Origin: Candidatus Saccharimonadota bacterium
Lineage (GTDB): Bacteria; Patescibacteriota; Microgenomatia; UBA1406; GWC2-37-13
Assembly: GCA_016432445.1 (NCBI GenBank)
Contig: CP066689.1
Span: forward strand, 420,001-452,000
DNA: 32,000 bases
Direction: 5' to 3'
Part shown: positions 6,706 to 15,140 of the stretch, in pieces
How positions within the stretch are numbered: the first letter of the stretch is position 1
Layout: every line of letters starts with the position of its first letter
Notes under the pieces: model-generated
Databases searched by the model: none
The model's input: the letters and a program-made list of their open reading frames with translations, nothing else
What the model was told of the DNA's origin: nothing
Translations under genes and position numbers: made by a program

Positions 6706-7468
6706 ACATTTTATTGCCTCCAAAAATAAGATCGACTTGAGTGCTGTCAATACCAATACCTACATGTGACCAGGTTGAGTTAAGCTGATTATTGTTGTGA
6801 GGTTCATCGCCGGCAAAGATCCATTCAATTAAGTGAACGCCGTACATTTTATAGCCATAACTTGAGTTTTCCCCTAAGCTCCAAAACCCAAGTTTTTTAA
6901 CATTTTCTATATCTTTTGTATATTCCTCAAAACCGGCATGAGAGTCAAGTTTACCTAGACCGGTAAAATATTTAGCTCTGGTTTGCGCAAATTCAGCTAG
7001 TCTATCATCCCATGTTAAGGTCGATTTGTTATGACGCTGACGGTAAATATTTAAAGCCTCAAATACTTCCTGAGCTGAAGCCATCCGGTCATCGAGCGCA
7101 ATATTCATAGTCCAGGTTTTCTCGTCAATCTGTTTGGCTGTCCCCCATGGTTCGGTGGGGGTAATAACAATACTGTTACTGTTAATTTGTCTGATAGTTG
7201 GGGATATTGGAGAGGTTTGGGTCGGAGAGAGAGGTGAGGTGATTTGGGGAGTTGGGGATATTGGGGCAATTAGGGAGATTGGGGGTATTACTATTTTTTG
7301 TTTTTGTAATTTTTTTACTTCTGCTTGAGCTATTTGTAAGTTTTTTTCAGTTATCGTGAGTTTTTCCTTATATTCATTTTTTCCAATAGTGTAACCTAAA
7401 GTAGTAAAGACAATAATGAGAAATACAATGATTAAGTCGTGAAACTTAAATTTTTTTATTTCTGCCAT
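6704..7468 (-). CDS. membrane-anchored CAP/SCP (PR-1-like) domain protein
   Basis: N-terminal TM helix, coiled coil and P/T/S-rich linker. CAP-like C-terminal domain (ALNIYRQRHN...LTWDDRLAEFAQTRA...GENSSYG...HVGIGI). Confidence 0.65.
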   Translation of the reverse strand: MAEIKKFKFHDLIIVFLIIVFTTLGYTIGKNEYKEKLTITEKNLQIAQAEVKKLQKQKIVIPPISLIAPISPTPQITSPLSPTQTSPISPTIRQINSNSIVITPTEPWGTAKQIDEKTWTMNIALDDRMASAQEVFEALNIYRQRHNKSTLTWDDRLAEFAQTRAKYFTGLGKLDSHAGFEEYTKDIENVKKLGFWSLGENSSYGYKMYGVHLIEWIFAGDEPHNNNQLNSTWSHVGIGIDSTQVDLIFGGNKM

Positions 7469-7947
7469 TGGATGTAGGTACAGCCTGAGGAAGCTCGTGT
7501 TTTAGGATCCCACTGATTGGTCGAGCATTTTTTCATTTTTTTTCCGGCGGCTGAGGTGTACATAACTAAAGCTGATCCGCAATCCGGGCACTCTTCATTC
7601 AACTGTTCAGTTACTCCTTTAATCCACTCAACATAATCACAGCCTGACTGAGTGCGGGTGTCAGGATCCCATTTGCTGGTTGAACATTTTTTAAGTTTTT
7701 TGCCAAACTTAGTGACAGTAAGCATTAGAGCTTCGCCGCATTTAGGGCATTTTTCATCAAGTGCTTTAGGTTCAGGAGTAATCCACTTAATAAAATCACA
7801 TCCATCTACGCTTCGGGTTTGAGCATTCCATGAGCCGGTAGAACACCTCTGGAATTGTTTTCCGGATTTAGTTTCCATAACTGAGCCGAGAGCCGATCCG
7901 CATTTAGGACAGTTTTCAGGGGTTTGAGTTTTTTTAGTTTTTTCCAT
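7456..7947 (-). CDS. protein with three tandem topoisomerase-type C4 zinc-ribbon repeats
   Basis: Three repeats of about 50 aa with the pattern CP(K/D)CG(S/E)AL...G(K)K..(K/R)CST..W...TR...GC(D/T)(F/Y)(I/V).W. Confidence 0.7.
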   Translation of the reverse strand: MEKTKKTQTPENCPKCGSALGSVMETKSGKQFQRCSTGSWNAQTRSVDGCDFIKWITPEPKALDEKCPKCGEALMLTVTKFGKKLKKCSTSKWDPDTRTQSGCDYVEWIKGVTEQLNEECPDCGSALVMYTSAAGKKMKKCSTNQWDPKTRASSGCTYIQWQK

Positions 7948-8891: not shown

Positions 8892-10355
8892 TTATTTAAT
8901 TTTCAAATCATCCAATATCTCAGTTCTGGGGTCAAAGACTCGGATAAGGTGATTGTTGGTATCGGCAATAAAAAGCAGATCATTTTTGGCAACAATATCA
9001 TTGGGTTCATAAAGGGCAAGCTGTTCACATTTTTTATCTCCGATCATACAAATATCAGTGCCTTTTTCACGGCCGACTAGAGTTTCAATATCTTTTGTTT
9101 TTAAATTCACAACCCGGATGGCATTATTATAAGTATCGGCAATATATAGAAATTTACTGTTAGCAAAAACTCCCAATGGATGTTGAAGCAACGCTTTATT
9201 AAAAGGGCCGTCTTTATGCCCGAAGGTAAATAAGCCCTTACCGATGAGCGTAGCAACCTTTTCTTCATCAATATTTATTTTTCTTAAAGATGAACTTTCG
9301 CTATCAGTGAAATAAATATCATTGCCGTAAATACTTAAGCCGCTGGGTTGAGCTAGTTCGGCGTCAGACCAGTGGTTATCAACTAAGCCTTCATAGCCGT
9401 TTCCGGCAAAAAGTTCCATTACGTTGTTTTCAAATCCGTAGCGCCAGATTTGATGGGAGCCGGCCATAGCAATGTAAAAAAATTTATCGAAGTAATCTAT
9501 ATCCCAAGGAGAACTTAGGGCAATCTCCAAGGCTTTTCCGCTTATTGGTTGTCCAAAAGGAGCTTGAATGCCAGTACCGGCAATCGTCGACACTTTTTTA
9601 GTTTTAAGATCAACTTTTTTAAGCAAATGATTATCAGTGTCGCAGACATAAAGATTATTTCCTAAAGGATATATTCCTTGAGGGTGATTGAAATTGCCTT
9701 TAATAATATTTTTGATCTTAACTTGGGCGGGAGATTTGTAATCACAAATTAGAATGCGGTTGTGGTTGGAATCTGAGATAAAAAGAGTGTCGCCTTTTTG
9801 ATCAAACTCAATTTTTCCAGGAAAAGATAAAGTTTGTTTAGATTTCTTTTTTTTAAGTTCTAGGCGTAAAGGTTTATCAGCCAATGTACCTTCAACTTCT
9901 CCTTCTTTCAGCAGAATCTCAATTTCGTTTTCAAGGTGACCGCGTTGTCCTTCACCAGAGACTTGTTCGCGCACATAACCTTCAGGATCAATAAGAATCA
10001 TTGTCGGCCAGGCATTGACAGCATAGGCATTCCAGATATCATGGTTGTTATCGGCTATTACCGGGTGAGTAATCTCATATCTTTCTATAGCCGATTGAAG
10101 ATGATCAAGAACAATCTCATTTTCAAATTTAGGTGAGTGAGCTCCGATGACAACCACAGGTTTGCCTTTAAATTTTTCTTCAATAGATTTTAGATCAGGT
10201 AGAACATGAATACAGTTAATGCAGCAGTAAGTCCAGAAATCCAAAAGAACAACATAACCTTTTAATTTTTTCATGCTTAATTTTCTTTTAGAATTAAGCC
10301 AGGTTAAATCTGCTGGAAATTCTGGAGCTCTAACTGCTTGAGTAAATATTGGCAT
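8892..10355 (-). CDS. thioredoxin-like domain + NHL-repeat beta-propeller protein (NHLRC2-like)
   Basis: N-terminal redoxin motif LLDFWTYCCINCIHVLPDL. This is followed by repeated NHL-like blades (FNHPQGI, LSSPWDI, LAQPSGL, LQHPLGV, LYEPNDI). Confidence 0.85.
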   Translation of the reverse strand: MPIFTQAVRAPEFPADLTWLNSKRKLSMKKLKGYVVLLDFWTYCCINCIHVLPDLKSIEEKFKGKPVVVIGAHSPKFENEIVLDHLQSAIERYEITHPVIADNNHDIWNAYAVNAWPTMILIDPEGYVREQVSGEGQRGHLENEIEILLKEGEVEGTLADKPLRLELKKKKSKQTLSFPGKIEFDQKGDTLFISDSNHNRILICDYKSPAQVKIKNIIKGNFNHPQGIYPLGNNLYVCDTDNHLLKKVDLKTKKVSTIAGTGIQAPFGQPISGKALEIALSSPWDIDYFDKFFYIAMAGSHQIWRYGFENNVMELFAGNGYEGLVDNHWSDAELAQPSGLSIYGNDIYFTDSESSSLRKINIDEEKVATLIGKGLFTFGHKDGPFNKALLQHPLGVFANSKFLYIADTYNNAIRVVNLKTKDIETLVGREKGTDICMIGDKKCEQLALYEPNDIVAKNDLLFIADTNNHLIRVFDPRTEILDDLKIK

Positions 10356-10392
10356 ATTACCCCATGATAAGAGAGTAAGGTAAGATTTCTGT

Positions 10393-10460
10393 AAAAAAAA
10401 AGCGCCGGTCGGGTAAGAAAGTCAGAAGAGTCTGACAAACTTGCCTTTCCGGCGTTTGAC
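10393..10460 (-). terminator. composite three-helix intrinsic terminator of cassette 3
   Basis: Minus-strand RNA reads GUCAAA-CGCCGG-AAA-GGCAAG-UUU-GUCAGA-CUCU-UCUGAC-UUU-CUUACC-CGA-CCGGCG-C-U9. The plus-strand A-run is at 10393-10401. Confidence 0.8.
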
Positions 10461-10467
10461 CTTTCAG

Positions 10468-10653
10468 TCATTCAGTTGGTCGAGGCTTGATGTTTTTGCG
10501 AGGCACCATCAGGCCTTTCCCAATGCCCGTTCTCACGTAGCAATCAGTGCTCCAATAAAATGCGACGGTGCCTTCGATGGGTTTAGGTATCTTGCCCTCG
10601 CTGTCTGGCTCAGGCTGGACAATGACAGCTGTCCCGACATCAATATGTGGCAA
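10468..10653 (-). CDS. 61-aa beta-rich small protein (S4), uncharacterised
   Basis: TTG start at 10653 with AGAGGTG 6 nt upstream. It shares the pattern G-T-x-V ... I-E-G-T ... C-x-V ... I-K-P with the 62- and 65-aa ORFs. Confidence 0.55.
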   Translation of the reverse strand: MPHIDVGTAVIVQPEPDSEGKIPKPIEGTVAFYWSTDCYVRTGIGKGLMVPRKNIKPRPTE

Positions 10654-10729
10654 TAGTTCACCTCTTTTCTATCCTCTAAGGACAAAATTTGATTGCTGAC
10701 CAAGGTGGAGAGGGCGGTCTCCCACGCAC

Positions 10730-11149
10730 TTACCTCAGAAGTCCAGCATCCTCTAAGATGGCTCGAGCCTGCTCGACGACATTCATGCATATTTCACAGT
10801 GATCTAGGTGAGTTGCAATCGAGTTATACTTTCCACCTTGCTTTCGATCACCGGTATCGTTCTTGGCGAAGTCAACCAAGTGAATCGGTAAGGGACAGAA
10901 ATCCCTTTTAAACATGAGTCTATCATGCAAGGCACTGTAGAATGTTTGTGTGCAACTTTCACATTGCTCTAAGACCTTCCTAAGGTTGGGAGGTAGGAGC
11001 AAGCTAAGCGGCAGTTTGCGGAGCTCTCGCAGTCTTAGTTCTATGGTAGGTTCCAGCCCTGTCCAGATGAGATCAAAAAGCTCCATGGGTACCCGGCTAG
11101 CCAGATATTTGGCTAAGTCGTGGTGGTCACAATCGGTAGTGGGTTCCAT
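10730..11149 (-). CDS. 139-aa helical Cys/His-rich protein with C-terminal HxxxCxxC motif, uncharacterised
   Basis: Longest ORF of cassette 3. CxxC at residues 63-66 and HLDHCEIC at residues 114-121 (10787-10810). Its ATG is 17 nt from the leader SD, and a 15-codon uORF occupies the optimal position. Confidence 0.6.
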   Translation of the reverse strand: MEPTTDCDHHDLAKYLASRVPMELFDLIWTGLEPTIELRLRELRKLPLSLLLPPNLRKVLEQCESCTQTFYSALHDRLMFKRDFCPLPIHLVDFAKNDTGDRKQGGKYNSIATHLDHCEICMNVVEQARAILEDAGLLR

Positions 11150-11308
11150 TCGGATATCATTCCTCTCTCCTTACTCCGCCCTTAGCAAGGAATACAAAGA
11201 CAAGAGTTTATCTTCATATTCCTTGCCAGGACAGATACATAACAACTGAATTTTCAAAGTACTATAAGCAAAAGATAGGCATGCGAAAGCCTAGGTTTAT
11301 TTGATATG
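11150..11308 (-). promoter_or_regulatory. conserved structured 5' leader, copy A (cassette 3)
   Basis: P1 11276-11280/11289-11293. Invariant motif ATTCAGTTGTT (complement of 11241-11251). P2 11185-11194/11217-11226 and P3 11196-11200/11211-11215. SD at 11167-11172. Confidence 0.65.
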
Positions 11309-11314
11309 GGAAGA

Positions 11315-11356
11315 ATTTTATCAGAAATAAAGGGCAAAATCAAACTACTATGGGAC
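11315..11356 (-). promoter_or_regulatory. sigma70-type promoter of cassette 3 with conserved upstream box
   Basis: Minus strand reads CCCATAGTAGTTTGATTT. The -35 TTGATT is at 11338-11343, followed by a 17-nt spacer and -10 TAAAAT at 11315-11320. Confidence 0.7.
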
Positions 11357-11376
11357 AGCCTTGTAACTTTGGAGAT

Positions 11377-11448
11377 AAAAAATAGCGCTCGGAAGGAAAG
11401 AAAGTCATGAAAGTCATGACAGACCTGCCTTACGAGCGCTCGTTTGAG
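11377..11448 (-). terminator. composite three-helix intrinsic terminator of cassette 2
   Basis: Outer stem AGCGCUCG/CGAGCGCU (11433-11440 with 11384-11391). Inner hairpin GUCAUG-ACUUU-CAUGAC, followed by A-U6. Confidence 0.75.
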
Positions 11449-11454
11449 ATGATC

Positions 11455-11643
11455 TCAGCTGTTTGCCGGGAAAGGCTTGATGGTAGCGTTTAAGCAAACT
11501 GTGGGTGTACCGTTGACTACGACGAGGCACCAAGTGGAGTTGTATGGCTCTCGGTAGATGCCATGTACAGGTCTGTTGGAACCGTGGAGTTGTGCTGTGA
11601 CGTGATCTCCGCGCTGAACGCCTTGTCTAGGATGATTTGCCAT
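11455..11643 (-). CDS. 62-aa beta-rich small protein (S3), uncharacterised
   Basis: ATG at 11643 is preceded by GAGGAGG. The longer 80-aa track ORF would overlap the upstream gene. The ATG at 11655 is a weaker alternative. Confidence 0.55.
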   Translation of the reverse strand: MANHPRQGVQRGDHVTAQLHGSNRPVHGIYREPYNSTWCLVVVNGTPTVCLNATIKPFPANS

Positions 11644-11662
11644 TTTCCTCCTCATTTCCTTC

Positions 11663-11860
11663 TTAGTTGACTGCGCTTGCGATAACGGCGGTTTCAATTC
11701 CCTTGACTAAACAGGTATGATTATTGCCGTAATCATCGCGAACGATGCAGATTCCGTCATCGTAGTAATCCGTCAGTGTACCTTCTACGGTCTCCAAGGT
11801 AGGACGGTGAATGGCGAGTATTGCCTTCACTCGCGTACCTAGTGGAATTTCATCTAACAT
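11663..11860 (-). CDS. 65-aa beta-rich small protein (S2), uncharacterised
   Basis: ATG at 11860 with AAGGAGG 6 nt upstream. The pattern GTRV...VEGTLTDYYDDGICIVRDDYGNNHTCLV suggests a small beta-barrel. Confidence 0.6.
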   Translation of the reverse strand: MLDEIPLGTRVKAILAIHRPTLETVEGTLTDYYDDGICIVRDDYGNNHTCLVKGIETAVIASAVN

Positions 11861-11903
11861 TTGAATCCTCCTTTCTAGTCTTTTTGAGTTGATTTTTCGT
11901 TGG

Positions 11904-12170
11904 CTAGCCGATCAGTTGATGCCGGCGCTGGCGAAGCCGGAACTCTGATGCATAGTACGGTAGATAGAAGCCGCTGATGTGACCGATGCAAAATACTACA
12001 AAGGCGAATAGATACGGCCATCCATCGGGAACAAGGCTTGGGCCGATCCATAAGATCACGATTCCGGCGAGGAATAATACCGGTTTTGTATTCGGTGTAG
12101 GTTCGATGAATTCCATGCCGAGTCTTACCCCGAAAGTAAACCATACTGCCAGGAACAGTGCAAAAGACAT
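11904..12170 (-). CDS. 88-aa three-TM small membrane protein, paralogue 2
   Basis: ATG at 12170 with AAGGAGG 7 nt upstream. Three hydrophobic segments and a basic C-terminal tail. About 70% identical by eye to the 12463-12723 product. Confidence 0.75.
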   Translation of the reverse strand: MSFALFLAVWFTFGVRLGMEFIEPTPNTKPVLFLAGIVILWIGPSLVPDGWPYLFAFVVFCIGHISGFYLPYYASEFRLRQRRHQLIG

Positions 12171-12334
12171 CTCGTTTCCTCCTTTCTCCTTACTCTATCC
12201 TTAGCAAGGAGTATAAGGAGAAAAGTTTATCCTCATGCTTCTTACTAAGGTAAAAGTAAGGTAACAACTGAATATGTTAAAGTGCATTGGATAAGACGAC
12301 AGATAGACAGCAAAAGCCTAAACTCATCTTACTC
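12171..12334 (-). promoter_or_regulatory. conserved structured 5' leader, copy B (cassette 2)
   Basis: P1 12304-12308/12316-12320. Motif is the complement of 12263-12273. P2 12199-12208/12241-12250 and P3 12215-12219/12230-12234. An 8-nt anti-SD (12214-12221) is exactly complementary to the SD (12185-12192). Confidence 0.65.
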
Positions 12335-12340
12335 AGACGC

Positions 12341-12382
12341 ATTTTATCAAAATGGAGAATTTAAATCAAACTACTATGGGGT
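12341..12382 (-). promoter_or_regulatory. sigma70-type promoter of cassette 2 with conserved upstream box
   Basis: -35 TTGATT at 12364-12369, 17-nt spacer, -10 TAAAAT at 12341-12346. The same 18-nt box CCCATAGTAGTTTGATTT is present. Confidence 0.7.
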
Positions 12383-12385
12383 TAT

Positions 12386-12455
12386 AAAAAAAGCGCCCGT
12401 AGAAGTAAGTGCCGTGAAAGTCACGGTAAACTTACTCTTTCGAGCGCATTTGACC
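12386..12455 (-). terminator. composite three-helix intrinsic terminator of cassette 1
   Basis: Minus-strand RNA reads GUCAAAU-GCGCUCG-AAA-GAGUAAG-UUU-ACCGUGA-CUU-UCACGG-C-ACUUACUUC-UA-CGGGCGC-U7. Confidence 0.8.
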
Positions 12456-12462
12456 TTTCGGT

Positions 12463-12723
12463 TCATTCAGTTGTTTGCTGCCGGCGAAGCCGAAGCTCTG
12501 TTGCGTAGTACGGCAGGTAGAAGCCACATATGGTGCCGATAATGAATGTTGCTATTGCAAAAAGATACGGCCATCCGTTGGGAACGAGACTTTTTCCGAC
12601 CACGAGCATTACTATTCCGGCAAGTAAAAGTACAGGTTTCATCTTCGGTGTAGGTTCGATGACTTCCATGCCAAGTCTTACCCCGAAAGCAAACCATACT
12701 GTCAGGAACAGTATAAAAGACAT
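12463..12723 (-). CDS. 86-aa three-TM small membrane protein, paralogue 1
   Basis: ATG at 12723 with AAGGAGG 7 nt upstream. It is a paralogue of the 11904-12170 product (MSF.LFL.VWF.FGVRLGME.IEPTP..KPVL.LAGIV...SLVP.GWPYLFA...GFYLPYYA.E.RLR). Confidence 0.75.
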   Translation of the reverse strand: MSFILFLTVWFAFGVRLGMEVIEPTPKMKPVLLLAGIVMLVVGKSLVPNGWPYLFAIATFIIGTICGFYLPYYATELRLRRQQTTE

Positions 12724-12738
12724 CGTTTTTCCTCCTTT

Positions 12739-13002
12739 CTACCCTTTGCAGGTAAGTATTGAGATTTTGAGATTCTCGTAGTCGCCGCGTGTCAAGGTTA
12801 ATAGGTCTTCTGCTGTCGGTAAGGCGATGCGATCAAGATCCTTCAAGTGTTTCTTGGTTCCGTCCAAAAACCTGACGTCTATATCGCACCGGTTTATTCC
12901 TTCAATTACGCAGATTCGGCCTCCGTGAATAATAATTGCTCCGGCTGGACCCTTAAGATTGGTTGTTAACACTTGGACATACATATGGTTCATTTTCTTC
13001 AT
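12739..13002 (-). CDS. 87-aa small soluble protein (S1), uncharacterised
   Basis: ATG at 13002 lies 7 nt after the leader SD (13010-13015). The 121-aa track ORF would read through the conserved leader. Confidence 0.6.
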   Translation of the reverse strand: MKKMNHMYVQVLTTNLKGPAGAIIIHGGRICVIEGINRCDIDVRFLDGTKKHLKDLDRIALPTAEDLLTLTRGDYENLKISILTCKG

Positions 13003-13155
13003 TCTCTTTCTCCTTACTTCACTCAAGCAAGGGATATAAGGATAAAGATTATCCTCGTATTTCTTACTTGAGACGAAGCAAAAAGTAAACAACTGAATTT
13101 TCAAAGTACTACAAATTAAAAATAGGTATGCAAAAACCTAAGTTTGTTTTGTTAA
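13003..13155 (-). promoter_or_regulatory. conserved structured 5' leader, copy C (cassette 1)
   Basis: P1 13123-13127/13136-13140. Motif is the complement of 13087-13098. P2 13022-13031/13063-13072 and P3 13039-13043/13051-13055. SD at 13010-13015. Confidence 0.65.
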
Positions 13156-13161
13156 TGAGCA

Positions 13162-13203
13162 ATTATACTAAATTTTTAGCCTTAAATCAAACTACTATGG
13201 GAC
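13162..13203 (-). promoter_or_regulatory. sigma70-type promoter of cassette 1 with conserved upstream box
   Basis: -35 TTGATT at 13185-13190, 17-nt spacer, -10 TATAAT at 13162-13167. The same 18-nt box is present. Confidence 0.75.
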
Positions 13204-13266
13204 AATGATCTGAGGTTTTTAGGTGGATAAACGATTAAATGTGTGGTAAAATATATTATTCTTAAT

Positions 13267-13297
13267 ACTTCACGGTTTAAGGCGTGAAGTTTTTTTT
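13267..13297 (+). terminator. canonical intrinsic terminator or attenuator immediately upstream of typA
   Basis: 8-bp stem ACTTCACG (13267-13274) / CGTGAAGT (13283-13290), 8-nt loop, then T7 (13291-13297). It sits 17 nt before the typA ATG. Confidence 0.6.
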
Positions 13298-13313
13298 GAG
13301 TCATAAAACACCT

Positions 13314-15140
13314 ATGGAAATAAGAAATATTGCTATTATTGCCCACGTTGACCATGGTAAAACTACCTTGGTTGATGGATTACTCAAACAAACCCACACT
13401 TTCCGTGATAATCAGAAGGAAATGTCTGAAACTTTGATCATGGATTCCAATGATTTGGAACGGGAAAAGGGCATTACGATATTGGCCAAAAATACTTCAG
13501 TTTTCTACCATGATCAGAAAATTAACATTATCGATACTCCTGGGCACGCAGATTTTGGCGGCGAGGTGGAACGGGTGATTAATATGGCCAGCGGCGCTTT
13601 GCTTTTGGTCGATGCGGCCGAAGGCCCTTTGCCTCAAACCAGATTTGTCTTAAAAAAAGCTTTAGAAGCTCATTTAAAAGTAATCTTAATCATCAACAAA
13701 ATTGATAAACGCGATGCCAGACCTCAAGAAGTTCTTCATGAAGTGGAAAATCTTTTTCTTGAATTAGCTCATGATGAAAACGCTTTGCATTTCACAACTC
13801 TTTACGCTGTAGGCCGAGATGGTAAGGCTTTTTACACTTTGCCTGAGAAATATGATGCATCTATGCCTGGCGATTTATCTCCTTTATTTGAAACAGTTGT
13901 TAAAGAAATTCCTAATGTTGCCGTGAATGATGATAAACCTTTTCAGATGCTTATTTCAACTTTGGATTATGATAATTATGTAGGCAAACTTTGTATTGGT
14001 AAAGTTTCAGCGGGAGTATTGTCTAAAGGTCAAACTGTGTCTTTAGTTGATGAGAATCAGGTTTTAGGAAATCATAAAGTGATGAAACTTTATACCAGCC
14101 GTGGTTTGCAAAGAGAAGAAGTGGATAAGGTAACTTCAGGAGACATTGTGGCGATTGCAGGTATTCCAGAACTTACTATTGGTCAAACTGTAACTGATCC
14201 TCAAAATCCTATAAGTTTACCAAAAATTGATATTGAAGAACCGACAATCAAAGTTACCATTGGTCCAAATACTAGTCCGCTTTCAGGTAGGGAAGGAAAA
14301 TACTCAACTTCAAGACAGATTAAAGAAAGATTAATGAAAGAAAAAGAAACAAACTTAGGTTTAAAGATTAAAGAGGATCCGGAAGGAGTAAGTTTTATAG
14401 TCAGTGGTCGGGGAGAGCTTCATCTGGCTGTTCTTATTGAAACCATGAGACGGGAAGGATTTGAAATGCAAATTTCAAAACCACAGGTTATTTATAAAGA
14501 TATTGATGGGCATGTTTGCGAGCCATATGAGGAAGTAACTATTGATGTTCATCAGGATTATATGGGACCAATTCAGGAGGAAATGGGAAAAAGACGCGCC
14601 ATTATGCAGGATATGACAACTGATCACAATGGCAATGCCCGTTTAATTTACAAAATCTCCAGCCAAAACTTATTGGGTATCCGCAATGTAATGTTAACCA
14701 AAACGAGAGGAACAGCTATTATGAGTACTTATTTTTTAGGATACGAGCCAAAAGGAGTCAAAATGGAATCTTTAAGAAATGGTGCTTTGGTAGCAGTTAA
14801 ATCGGGACAAGCCTTGTCTTATGGTTTACAGAATGCCCAAGATAGAGGAACACTTTTTGTGGGAGTTGGAGTTGAGGTTTATGAAGGAATGGTTGTGGGA
14901 GTGGCCGCCCGAGATATGGATGTTGAAGTTAATATCTGTAAAGCAAAACAACTGACTAATAACCGTTCTTCAGGAGAAGGTGTCAATATATCAGTGGCGC
15001 CTCCTACAATTCTTTCCCTTGAGCAGTGTTTAGACTTTATTAATGAAGATGAACTTCTTGAAGTTACTCCTTTAAATTTAAGGATAAGAAAAAAATTCTT
15101 AAACACAACTCAGCGAAGGGTTTATAATAGAAATAATTAA
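13314..15140 (+). CDS. typA: translational GTPase TypA/BipA
   Basis: [33 protein letters not shown] and NKIDK motifs, with the BipA-type C-terminal domain. ATG at 13314 is preferred to the GTG at 13284, which lies inside the hairpin. Confidence 0.9.

Follow-up and report, generated by a model that had tools for sequence, protein, structure and literature searches.

What kind of RNA precedes a small group of orphan genes in a bacterium of the Candidate Phyla Radiation, and how it could govern their expression, are the questions raised by a locus on contig CP066689.1 (assembly GCA_016432445.1, Candidatus Saccharimonadota bacterium). The window analysed here is the whole stretch of 32,000 nt between positions 420,001 and 452,000 of that contig; coordinates given below are counted from its first letter, and features lie on the minus strand unless stated otherwise. 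Between typA (plus strand, start at 13314) and a thioredoxin/NHL-repeat gene (10355-8892), a 3-kb island holds three tandem transcription units, C, B and A, each of which runs from a promoter box and a leader of about 150 nt through two or three orphan genes to a conserved 3' end with a long terminator. An earlier note on this DNA had proposed that the leaders follow the logic of a translational switch, such as a riboswitch, an RNA thermometer or a protein-titrated leader. Our analysis indicates that the leader is neither a ligand riboswitch nor a thermometer, but a structured leader that occludes the Shine-Dalgarno (SD) sequence and is combined with predicted pairing of the 5' and 3' ends of the message, a known kind of element that is restricted here to one locus and placed in an unusual genomic context. 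As for its role, we tentatively favour, giving it not quite an even chance, that it is the 5' untranslated region (UTR) of three tandem paralogous expression units and keeps their mRNAs closed, by a mechanism that we infer from the evidence presented below.

Each unit opens with an invariant 18-mer, CCCATAGTAGTTTGATTT, found three times in the window against 0.03 occurrences expected, and each copy has a promoter of the sigma-70 type, with the -35 element TTGATT within CCCATAGTAGTTTGATTT, a 17-nt spacer and TAAAAT or TATAAT as -10 element. This promoter box spans 13184-13201 in copy C (-35 at 13190-13185, -10 TATAAT at 13167-13162), 12363-12380 in copy B (-35 at 12369-12364, -10 TAAAAT at 12346-12341) and 11337-11354 in copy A (-35 at 11343-11338, -10 TAAAAT at 11320-11315). 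The three leaders were found where they had previously been located (11308-11150, 12334-12171 and 13155-13003). Taken from the putative transcription start up to the last base ahead of the start codon, the leader covers 13003-13155 in copy C (start codon at 13002) and 12171-12334 in copy B (start codon at 12170); in copy A it covers 11161-11308 and is followed by AUGs at 11160, which opens an open reading frame (ORF) of 15 codons, and at 11149, which opens an ORF of 139 aa. When aligned, the copies show a mean column identity of 76-80% and pairwise identities of 64-72%, with invariant blocks of 18, 11 and 10 nt. A covariance model built from them recovered exactly these three, at 140-148 bits, in the window and the fetched contigs, which contain only these three homologous positions; nothing else there rose above noise, the next best hits being opposite-strand palindromic echoes. 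The previous statement that the leader could not be matched to a known riboswitch class also agrees with our results, given that Rfam 15 yielded 0 matches at the gathering score over the whole window and only noise at E <= 10 over 10300-13400 (the top score was 21.9 bits, where the gathering score is 54; PhotoRC-II had 20.5 against 39).

Single-sequence folds and RNAalifold agree on the architecture of the leader, i.e. a 5-bp hairpin, P1, followed by one long hairpin. The helices described in the earlier note were all present as quoted: P1 as UAGGC/GCCUA in copy A, UAGGC/GUCUA in copy B and UAGGU/ACCUA in copy C; P2 as CUCAAGUAAG/CUUGCUUGAG in C, CCUUAGUAAG/CUUGCUAAGG in B and GCAAGGAAUA/UAUUCCUUGC in A; and likewise the strings of P3. 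These pairings stood, whereas the view of P2 and P3 as separate, nested helices did not, since both are part of a single continuous hairpin that spans them and runs further down. In the RNAalifold consensus, this hairpin has 33 pairs and extends to AGUAAGG of the SD; in the individual copies it is predicted to form 28 (A), 30 (B) and 33 (C) pairs, with energies of -34 to -38 kcal/mol, and z-scores for the minimum free energy (MFE) of the whole leader range from -4.0 to -6.3. The hairpin tip, GAUAA, is conserved in all three copies. Between P1 and the long hairpin lies the box AUUCAGUUGUU, an invariant segment of 11 nt that is unpaired in the leader of every copy and forms part of a 24-nt identical block in A and C. 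In copy C, P1 is located at 13140-13123, the box at 13098-13088, the long hairpin at 13085-13010 and the SD, AGUAAGGAGA, at 13018-13009. The corresponding positions are 12320-12304, 12273-12263, 12261-12188 and 12194-12185 in copy B, which has a second SD, GGAGG, at 12182-12178, and 11293-11276, 11251-11241, 11235-11175 and 11175-11166 in copy A. There is no U run after the leader hairpin, and an intrinsic attenuator was discarded; an integron attC-like site, IS200/IS605-like ends and a CsrA target were also considered and rejected.

Comparison of the three copies shows that the predicted long hairpin has been kept paired by selection on the sense strand. The compensatory changes that had been reported proved to be genuine: 9 of the 45 consensus pairs changed on both sides, compared with 4.3 +/- 1.7 in column shuffles (3 out of 500 reached 9) and with 0-2 when the partners were slid by 1-3 columns. 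Between any two copies, 18-19 paired positions of the long hairpin differ and 27-30 of its 30-33 pairs are still canonical, against approximately 17-23 when the same number of substitutions is placed at random. In simulations of neutral substitution this retention had P < 5e-5 without bias and P <= 0.015 with the observed transition bias, for every pair of copies. The substitutions on the anti-SD side of the hairpin foot (pairs 84-92 with 149-157) place C or U opposite G and G or A opposite U, which preserves pairing to the invariant SD. Each hairpin contains 3-6 G-U pairs, and the sense strand folds better than its complement, with sense/antisense energies of -38.4/-18.8 (A), -34.0/-31.8 (B) and -36.6/-26.0 kcal/mol (C); both features indicate that the constraint is on RNA made from the minus strand. 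The existence of a conserved, structured leader RNA on this strand, as previously proposed, is thus upheld.

The fold models also support occlusion of the SD, although unevenly among copies. In B and C, AGUAAGG of the SD forms the foot of the hairpin with a pyrimidine tract located just 5' of P2. In copy A the foot covers only GAGUA, and in the MFE structure the remainder of the SD has another CU-rich tract upstream as its partner. At 37 C, AAGGAG is predicted to be unpaired with a probability of 0.01 in C, 0.19 in A and 0.29 in B, compared with a median of 0.46 for the same position upstream of 24 other ORFs of the window. In copy B, the conserved AGUAAGGAGA is 15 nt before the AUG and the second SD only 7 nt, and GGAGG is the likely working SD of this copy.

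The region of tandem SDs in copy B (12171-12194) offers an observation of its own, which is that the second one, GAAAGGAGGAAAcgagATG, is nearly identical to GAAAGGAGGAAAAAcgATG, located before the paralogous membrane-protein gene of unit C (12724-12745). To judge from this resemblance, GGAGG is the membrane gene's own SD, as it is before the unit C paralogue, which suggests that unit B arose by loss of its first gene and fusion of the leader to the ribosome binding site of the membrane gene. In copy A, the AUG at 11160 has the best position relative to the conserved SD, and the 15-codon ORF that starts there, MISEWNPLPIVTTTT, overlaps out of frame the beginning of the 139-aa ORF, which starts 11 nt later at 11149; the two starts could compete or be coupled. 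A leader peptide was considered as well. An ORF of 11 codons exists in the hairpin of A and B only, C having ACG in place of AUG, and it was not regarded as a coding feature because all six differences between A and B fall at second codon positions and each of them changes the amino acid.

A feature that was absent from the earlier note, and is new here, is the complementarity between the leader box and the stop-codon region at the other end of the message. Besides the leaders, the sole exact occurrence of the 11-mer in the window is its reverse complement at 12465-12475, on leader C's own transcript. There, a 3' box (AGCAAACAACUGAAU, 12465-12479) overlaps the final codons and the UGA stop (12465-12463) of the gene for an 86-aa membrane protein, and is complementary at 14 of 15 positions to 13098-13084 of its own leader, versus 11 nt with the next leader downstream. 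The 3' box of copy A (ACCAACUGAAU, 10470-10480) is complementary to the leader box at 10 out of 11 positions and ends on the first base of the stop codon of a 61-aa gene, and that of copy B (AACAGCUGA, 11455-11463) is degenerate, includes the stop codon and pairs with UCAGUUGUU through one G-U. By our own estimate (3000/4^11), an exact sense-strand 11-mer would be expected by chance about 7e-4 times in the 3-kb island. When whole transcripts were folded, the probability of pairing between both boxes was 0.9-1.0 in C and around 0.45 in A. The duplex reaches -19.1 kcal/mol in C, a value not attained by any of 1000 shuffles, -17.7 kcal/mol in A (attained by 2.8% of shuffles) and -12.8 kcal/mol in B (5.7%). 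The 5' UTR is therefore complementary to the 3' end of its own transcript beyond chance, and weakly so in B.

If these elements act together, a newly made mRNA would fold into a closed form, with its ribosome binding site in the foot of a very stable hairpin and its 5' and 3' ends paired, which would limit translation initiation and shield the message from nucleases. For expression, this structure would have to be opened, and three routes seem plausible: cutting of the leader by a ribonuclease (RNase), either RNase III on the long helix or processing of the RNase Y/J type; unwinding of the end-to-end helix by ribosomes that reach the stop codon; or binding of a factor to the box or to the conserved hairpin tip GAUAA. 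The hairpin, predicted to have 28 (A), 30 (B) and 33 (C) pairs, exceeds the nearly continuous helix of at least 20 bp expected of an RNase III substrate; no rnc gene is present within the window. Leader hairpins processed by RNase III are known from lambda N, the T7 early mRNAs and the pnp and adhE leaders of E. coli, and the island leader resembles them in having a nearly regular helix of about 30 bp in the 5' UTR, beside the ribosome binding site and long enough for the enzyme. By analogy, cleavage by RNase III could unmask the SD.

In layout, the leader appears closest to three characterised messages, hbs, icaR and hok, yet it is a member of none. The hbs mRNA of Bacillus subtilis has a structured 5' UTR, a strong SD and a 14-bp helix between its 5' and 3' UTRs that modulates the access of RNase Y and links stability to translation initiation (Braun, Durand and Condon 2017, PMC5737220). 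There is no homology with it in sequence or structure; the 3' partner overlaps the last stop codon in the island, whereas in hbs it is located in the 3' UTR, and the SD itself is in a helix here, unlike in hbs. In icaR of Staphylococcus aureus, the 3' UTR motif UCCCCUG pairs directly with the SD and creates a site for RNase III (Ruiz de los Mozos et al. 2013, PMC3868564). Likeness to this system lies in the pairing of the mRNA's own two ends, predicted in our case, in hindered initiation and in an RNase III substrate that is double-stranded; in the island, however, the 3' box pairs with a box situated 20-90 nt upstream of the SD, which is hidden by a local hairpin. In hok/Sok, 5'-3' pairing (tac/fbi/ucb) locks a closed mRNA in which the SD is sequestered by an upstream complementary box (PMC9841398). 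Unlike hok, the island has no antisense RNA gene detectable in a scan for consensus promoters, no small single-helix toxin (below approximately 60 aa) and no evident refolding pathway; moreover, cassette A lacks a membrane protein and the membrane gene comes first only in B.

Several observations weigh against the closed-mRNA reading. Only the -10 boxes underlie the putative transcription starts, leader starts having been set about 7 nt after them. Pairing between the box and the 3' box is not predicted when the whole transcript of B is folded, and the complementarities of A and C count as one evolutionary event rather than two, because their 3' ends are homologous. Occlusion of the SD is strong in C and uneven elsewhere, the SD partner in A is not homologous to that of B and C, and the second SD of copy B sits 3' of the long hairpin. 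Leader identity between B and C (64%) is no higher than what the paralogous membrane-protein genes next to them show at third codon positions (63%), where 24 of 34 four-fold degenerate sites are also identical, and conservation as such is therefore no proof of constraint; since the leaders match these near-neutral sites, the evidence for constraint is in the pattern of change and not in its amount. Finally, the covariation rests on three paralogous copies from one clonal population, and Logan contigs from ten sequencing runs of one study were all (10/10) 100% identical to the window over the island, so that there is no population variation to exploit.

The resemblance to near-neutral positions would also be compatible with the leaders being functionless remains of a recent tandem duplication, an explanation that we regard as highly improbable, given that pairing has been maintained, with compensatory changes, through the 18-19 substitutions that separate each pair of copies, that the invariant blocks persist, and that the leader of A is 68-72% identical to those of B and C when the comparable proteins of A and B share only around 30% identity. 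The riboswitch or thermometer envisaged in the earlier note has, in our opinion, a next to negligible probability. SD-like, anti-SD-like and SD segments do exist, the exact 8-nt complement in B was confirmed (UCUCCUUA at 12221-12214 against UAAGGAGA at 12192-12185), and the lack of a match to any known class would leave room for a new one. However, this complement is present in copy B only, and a fold in which the 3' strand of P3 is made to pair with the real SD lies +6.7 (B), +14.6 to +19.9 (C) and +16.2 kcal/mol (A) above the MFE; this pairing is not conserved among copies, and the SD stays paired in it rather than being freed. The three copies show no two mutually exclusive conserved helices of comparable energy that could serve as a riboswitch platform. 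Instead of a multi-helix junction, a pseudoknot, an aptamer match or a pocket-like conserved core, there is one regular hairpin, the box has its complement in cis at the 3' end of the mRNA, and the genes downstream, unrelated orphans, share no metabolic theme. With respect to temperature, SD-sequestering thermometers such as ROSE and fourU use short, mismatched and weak helices. The island leader is like them in pairing the SD with an upstream pyrimidine tract, and unlike them in its stability, with no melting predicted: the unpaired probability of AAGGAG stays at 0.00-0.33 in silico across 4-55 C, i.e. pairing of the SD is almost flat over that range. Equally remote, at about the level of the duplication remnant, is an element acting on DNA, in which the 11-nt inverted repeats would be recombination sites (for an invertible promoter or for cassettes) or the hairpin would be a palindromic mobile element. 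In its favour, the terminator of C and the promoter of B lie between AACAACTGAAT (12475-12465) and ATTCAGTTGTT (12273-12263), which are 191 bp apart. Yet a partner is missing upstream of the promoter of C, unit B has a degenerate 3' box, an exact pair is present at the C/B junction only, and complementarity is longer within C than across that junction (14/15 versus 11). The hairpin, with its G-U pairs and strand asymmetry, points to RNA, the ten contigs, which come from different samples, show a single orientation, no recombinase or recombinase domain appears in the gene tables, and no dispersed copies exist in the window and the fetched contigs.

A passive role in mRNA stability is a more serious possibility, albeit an unlikely one. 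The structured 5' UTR and the strong, invariant SD would act as a ribosome block against 5' exonucleases, of the STAB-SD/hbs type, while terminators guard the 3' end and no switching takes place. This would account for the conservation of AGUAAGGAGA in B, where its distance of 15 nt from the AUG is too great for a working SD, and for the heavy structure at both ends of every unit, and it has a precedent in the strong SD of hbs, which blocks RNase J1 (PMC5737220). On the other hand, the fold models place the invariant SD itself in the paired foot of the hairpin, so that the ribosome binding on which a STAB-SD depends would be hindered, and the 5'-3' complementarity is left unexplained except as additional protection. 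We consider it quite unlikely that the leader is titrated by a protein, i.e. that a factor bound to the box, the hairpin tip or both sets the translation of all three operons. An invariant unpaired box and a GAUAA tip in all copies would suit such a factor, which might be encoded by the cassettes themselves, each of which specifies at least one beta protein of 61-87 aa; a structural model of the 65-aa protein of unit B is a confident small barrel of the SH3/Tudor/Sm-like type (predicted local distance difference test, pLDDT, 81). This model, nevertheless, gave no significant structural match in the PDB with Foldseek (best E 0.03, a generic barrel only), no RNA-binding family was matched significantly by structure or sequence, and the box already has a partner in cis at the 3' end. 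Very unlikely, in turn, is a true hok-like fold-back, in which the full-length mRNA would be locked by 5'-3' pairing with its SD hidden until 3' trimming triggers refolding and translation of a small harmful membrane protein. The complementarity of the ends and the hidden SD do recall tac/fbi/ucb, and two cassettes encode hydrophobic proteins of 86-88 aa with a basic tail, but these are longer than typical type I toxins, apparently with three hydrophobic stretches (judged by eye), they are missing from A and encoded by the second gene in C, no alternative partner for the box was seen inside the leader, and a consensus scan found no plus-strand (antisense) promoter in the island, although weak promoters would escape it.

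The closed-mRNA reading, which we continue to favour, has to be seen in the context of an island whose expression signals differ from those of its host, a contrast that is also a new observation. All seven island genes have a strong SD, with duplex energies of -7.1 to -11.9 kcal/mol (mean -10.0), while only 3 of 22 flanking genes (507-31695) reach -6 kcal/mol and their mean is -1.4; these energies were computed against a generic anti-SD, assumed because the 16S rRNA of the organism is outside the window. In 9 of the 22 flanking genes, a TATAAT-like box ends 5-14 nt before the start codon, suggesting that their mRNAs are leaderless or nearly so. Our search of the literature on SD or leaderless usage in the Candidate Phyla Radiation returned nothing useful. 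The G+C content of the island is 43-46%, versus 30-39% (about 35%) in its flanks, and, together with the SD contrast, makes the island look foreign to its host in expression signals. One might go further and picture it as a self-contained foreign expression system in a host that mostly translates leaderless or SD-less mRNAs, with its own promoter box, strong SDs and a closed-loop mRNA, in which the fold-back helix at the stop codon and an SD locked in a 30-bp hairpin of SD-like and anti-SD-like strands would gate the SD-dependent translation of orphan and possibly harmful membrane proteins. This would be a new class of hok-like, antisense-free mRNA switch in the Candidate Phyla Radiation, a conjecture that in our estimation is decidedly improbable.

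Downstream of the three leaders, the seven small ORFan genes of the island extend over 10468-13002. Unit C encodes a protein of 87 aa and, as second gene, the 86-aa membrane protein; unit B an 88-aa membrane protein, as first gene, and proteins of 65 and 62 aa; and unit A proteins of 139 and 61 aa, with no membrane protein. The 3' regions of the three units are homologous and each closes in a long terminator hairpin followed by a U run: GCGCUCG...CGGGCGC in copy C (12385-12447), a hairpin with 32-nt arms in copy B (11372-11445) and CGCCGG...CCGGCG in copy A (10393-10454). The 65-, 62- and 61-aa proteins (11666-11860, 11458-11643 and 10471-10653, respectively) are distant paralogues with approximately 30% identity. 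The 65-aa protein is identical to the NCBI entry 'MAG: hypothetical protein HYW86_02370 [Candidatus Roizmanbacteria bacterium]', located on a 1.10-Mb contig. Both membrane proteins, of 86 and 88 aa, show three hydrophobic stretches by eye and a basic tail.

Relatives of the leader or its genes were sought beyond the locus. The pattern ATTCAGTTGTT...GATAA...CCTTGCT had 15 matches in genome contigs, 1 in viral contigs and 10 in metagenome contigs, all by chance; the matches were in Helicobacter pylori, Chitinophaga, Nostoc and others, with unrelated flanks, and none of them scored with the covariance model. Additional pattern scans of viral contigs gave no true leader match, and the promoter-box pattern was absent from metagenome contigs and had a single, unrelated viral match. 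Searches with the 88-aa membrane protein, with the 139-aa protein and with a profile of the 65/62/61-aa family returned only the query itself or its paralogues in the island, as did an exhaustive HMMER search of 1.84 billion representatives with a membrane-protein profile. Comparison of the island proteins with Pfam, PHROGs, PADLOC and NCBIfam gave nothing above threshold. So far, the leader family is known from three paralogous copies at one locus.

Some other features of the region deserve mention. Residues 107-127 of the 139-aa protein (10733-11149) include an HxxxCxxC motif (HLDHCEIC), and the protein has a sub-threshold match to the RsrA family of zinc anti-sigma factors (E 0.0045, 17 bits against a cut-off of 62.5); its single-sequence structure model was unusable (pLDDT 44). 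A 17-nt inverted repeat, complementary at 16 of 17 positions, joins the 3' parts of the homologous 61-aa (A) and 62-aa (B) genes (10505-10521 and 11468-11484, 946 nt apart), with about 0.015 such repeats expected per 3 kb. Elsewhere in the window, an ORF for a zinc-ribbon-like protein of 163 aa (7456-7947, minus strand) carries three copies of a 30-nt repeat at 7568-7918, spaced 159-162 nt apart, and the protein is therefore internally repeated. On the plus strand, a promoter-like site precedes typA (TGGATA, 17 nt, TAAAAT; 13224-13252), and the short leader of this gene contains a terminator-like hairpin followed by T8 (13267-13298) just before the ATG at 13314, which could be an attenuator or simply a 5' hairpin.

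The practical value of these results is limited for now, as they concern one locus with orphan genes in one uncultivated organism. To our knowledge, hardly any work has been done on post-transcriptional control in the Candidate Phyla Radiation. Should the closed-mRNA model hold, the leaders described here would be among the very few bacterial mRNAs with pairing between their 5' and 3' ends, after hok, icaR and hbs, and the first such case in an organism of this group. In addition, the presence of an SD-rich island in an SD-poor and apparently often leaderless host provides a handle on the expression of foreign genes in hosts of this kind, and the SD contrast a simple marker for acquired DNA in their genomes.

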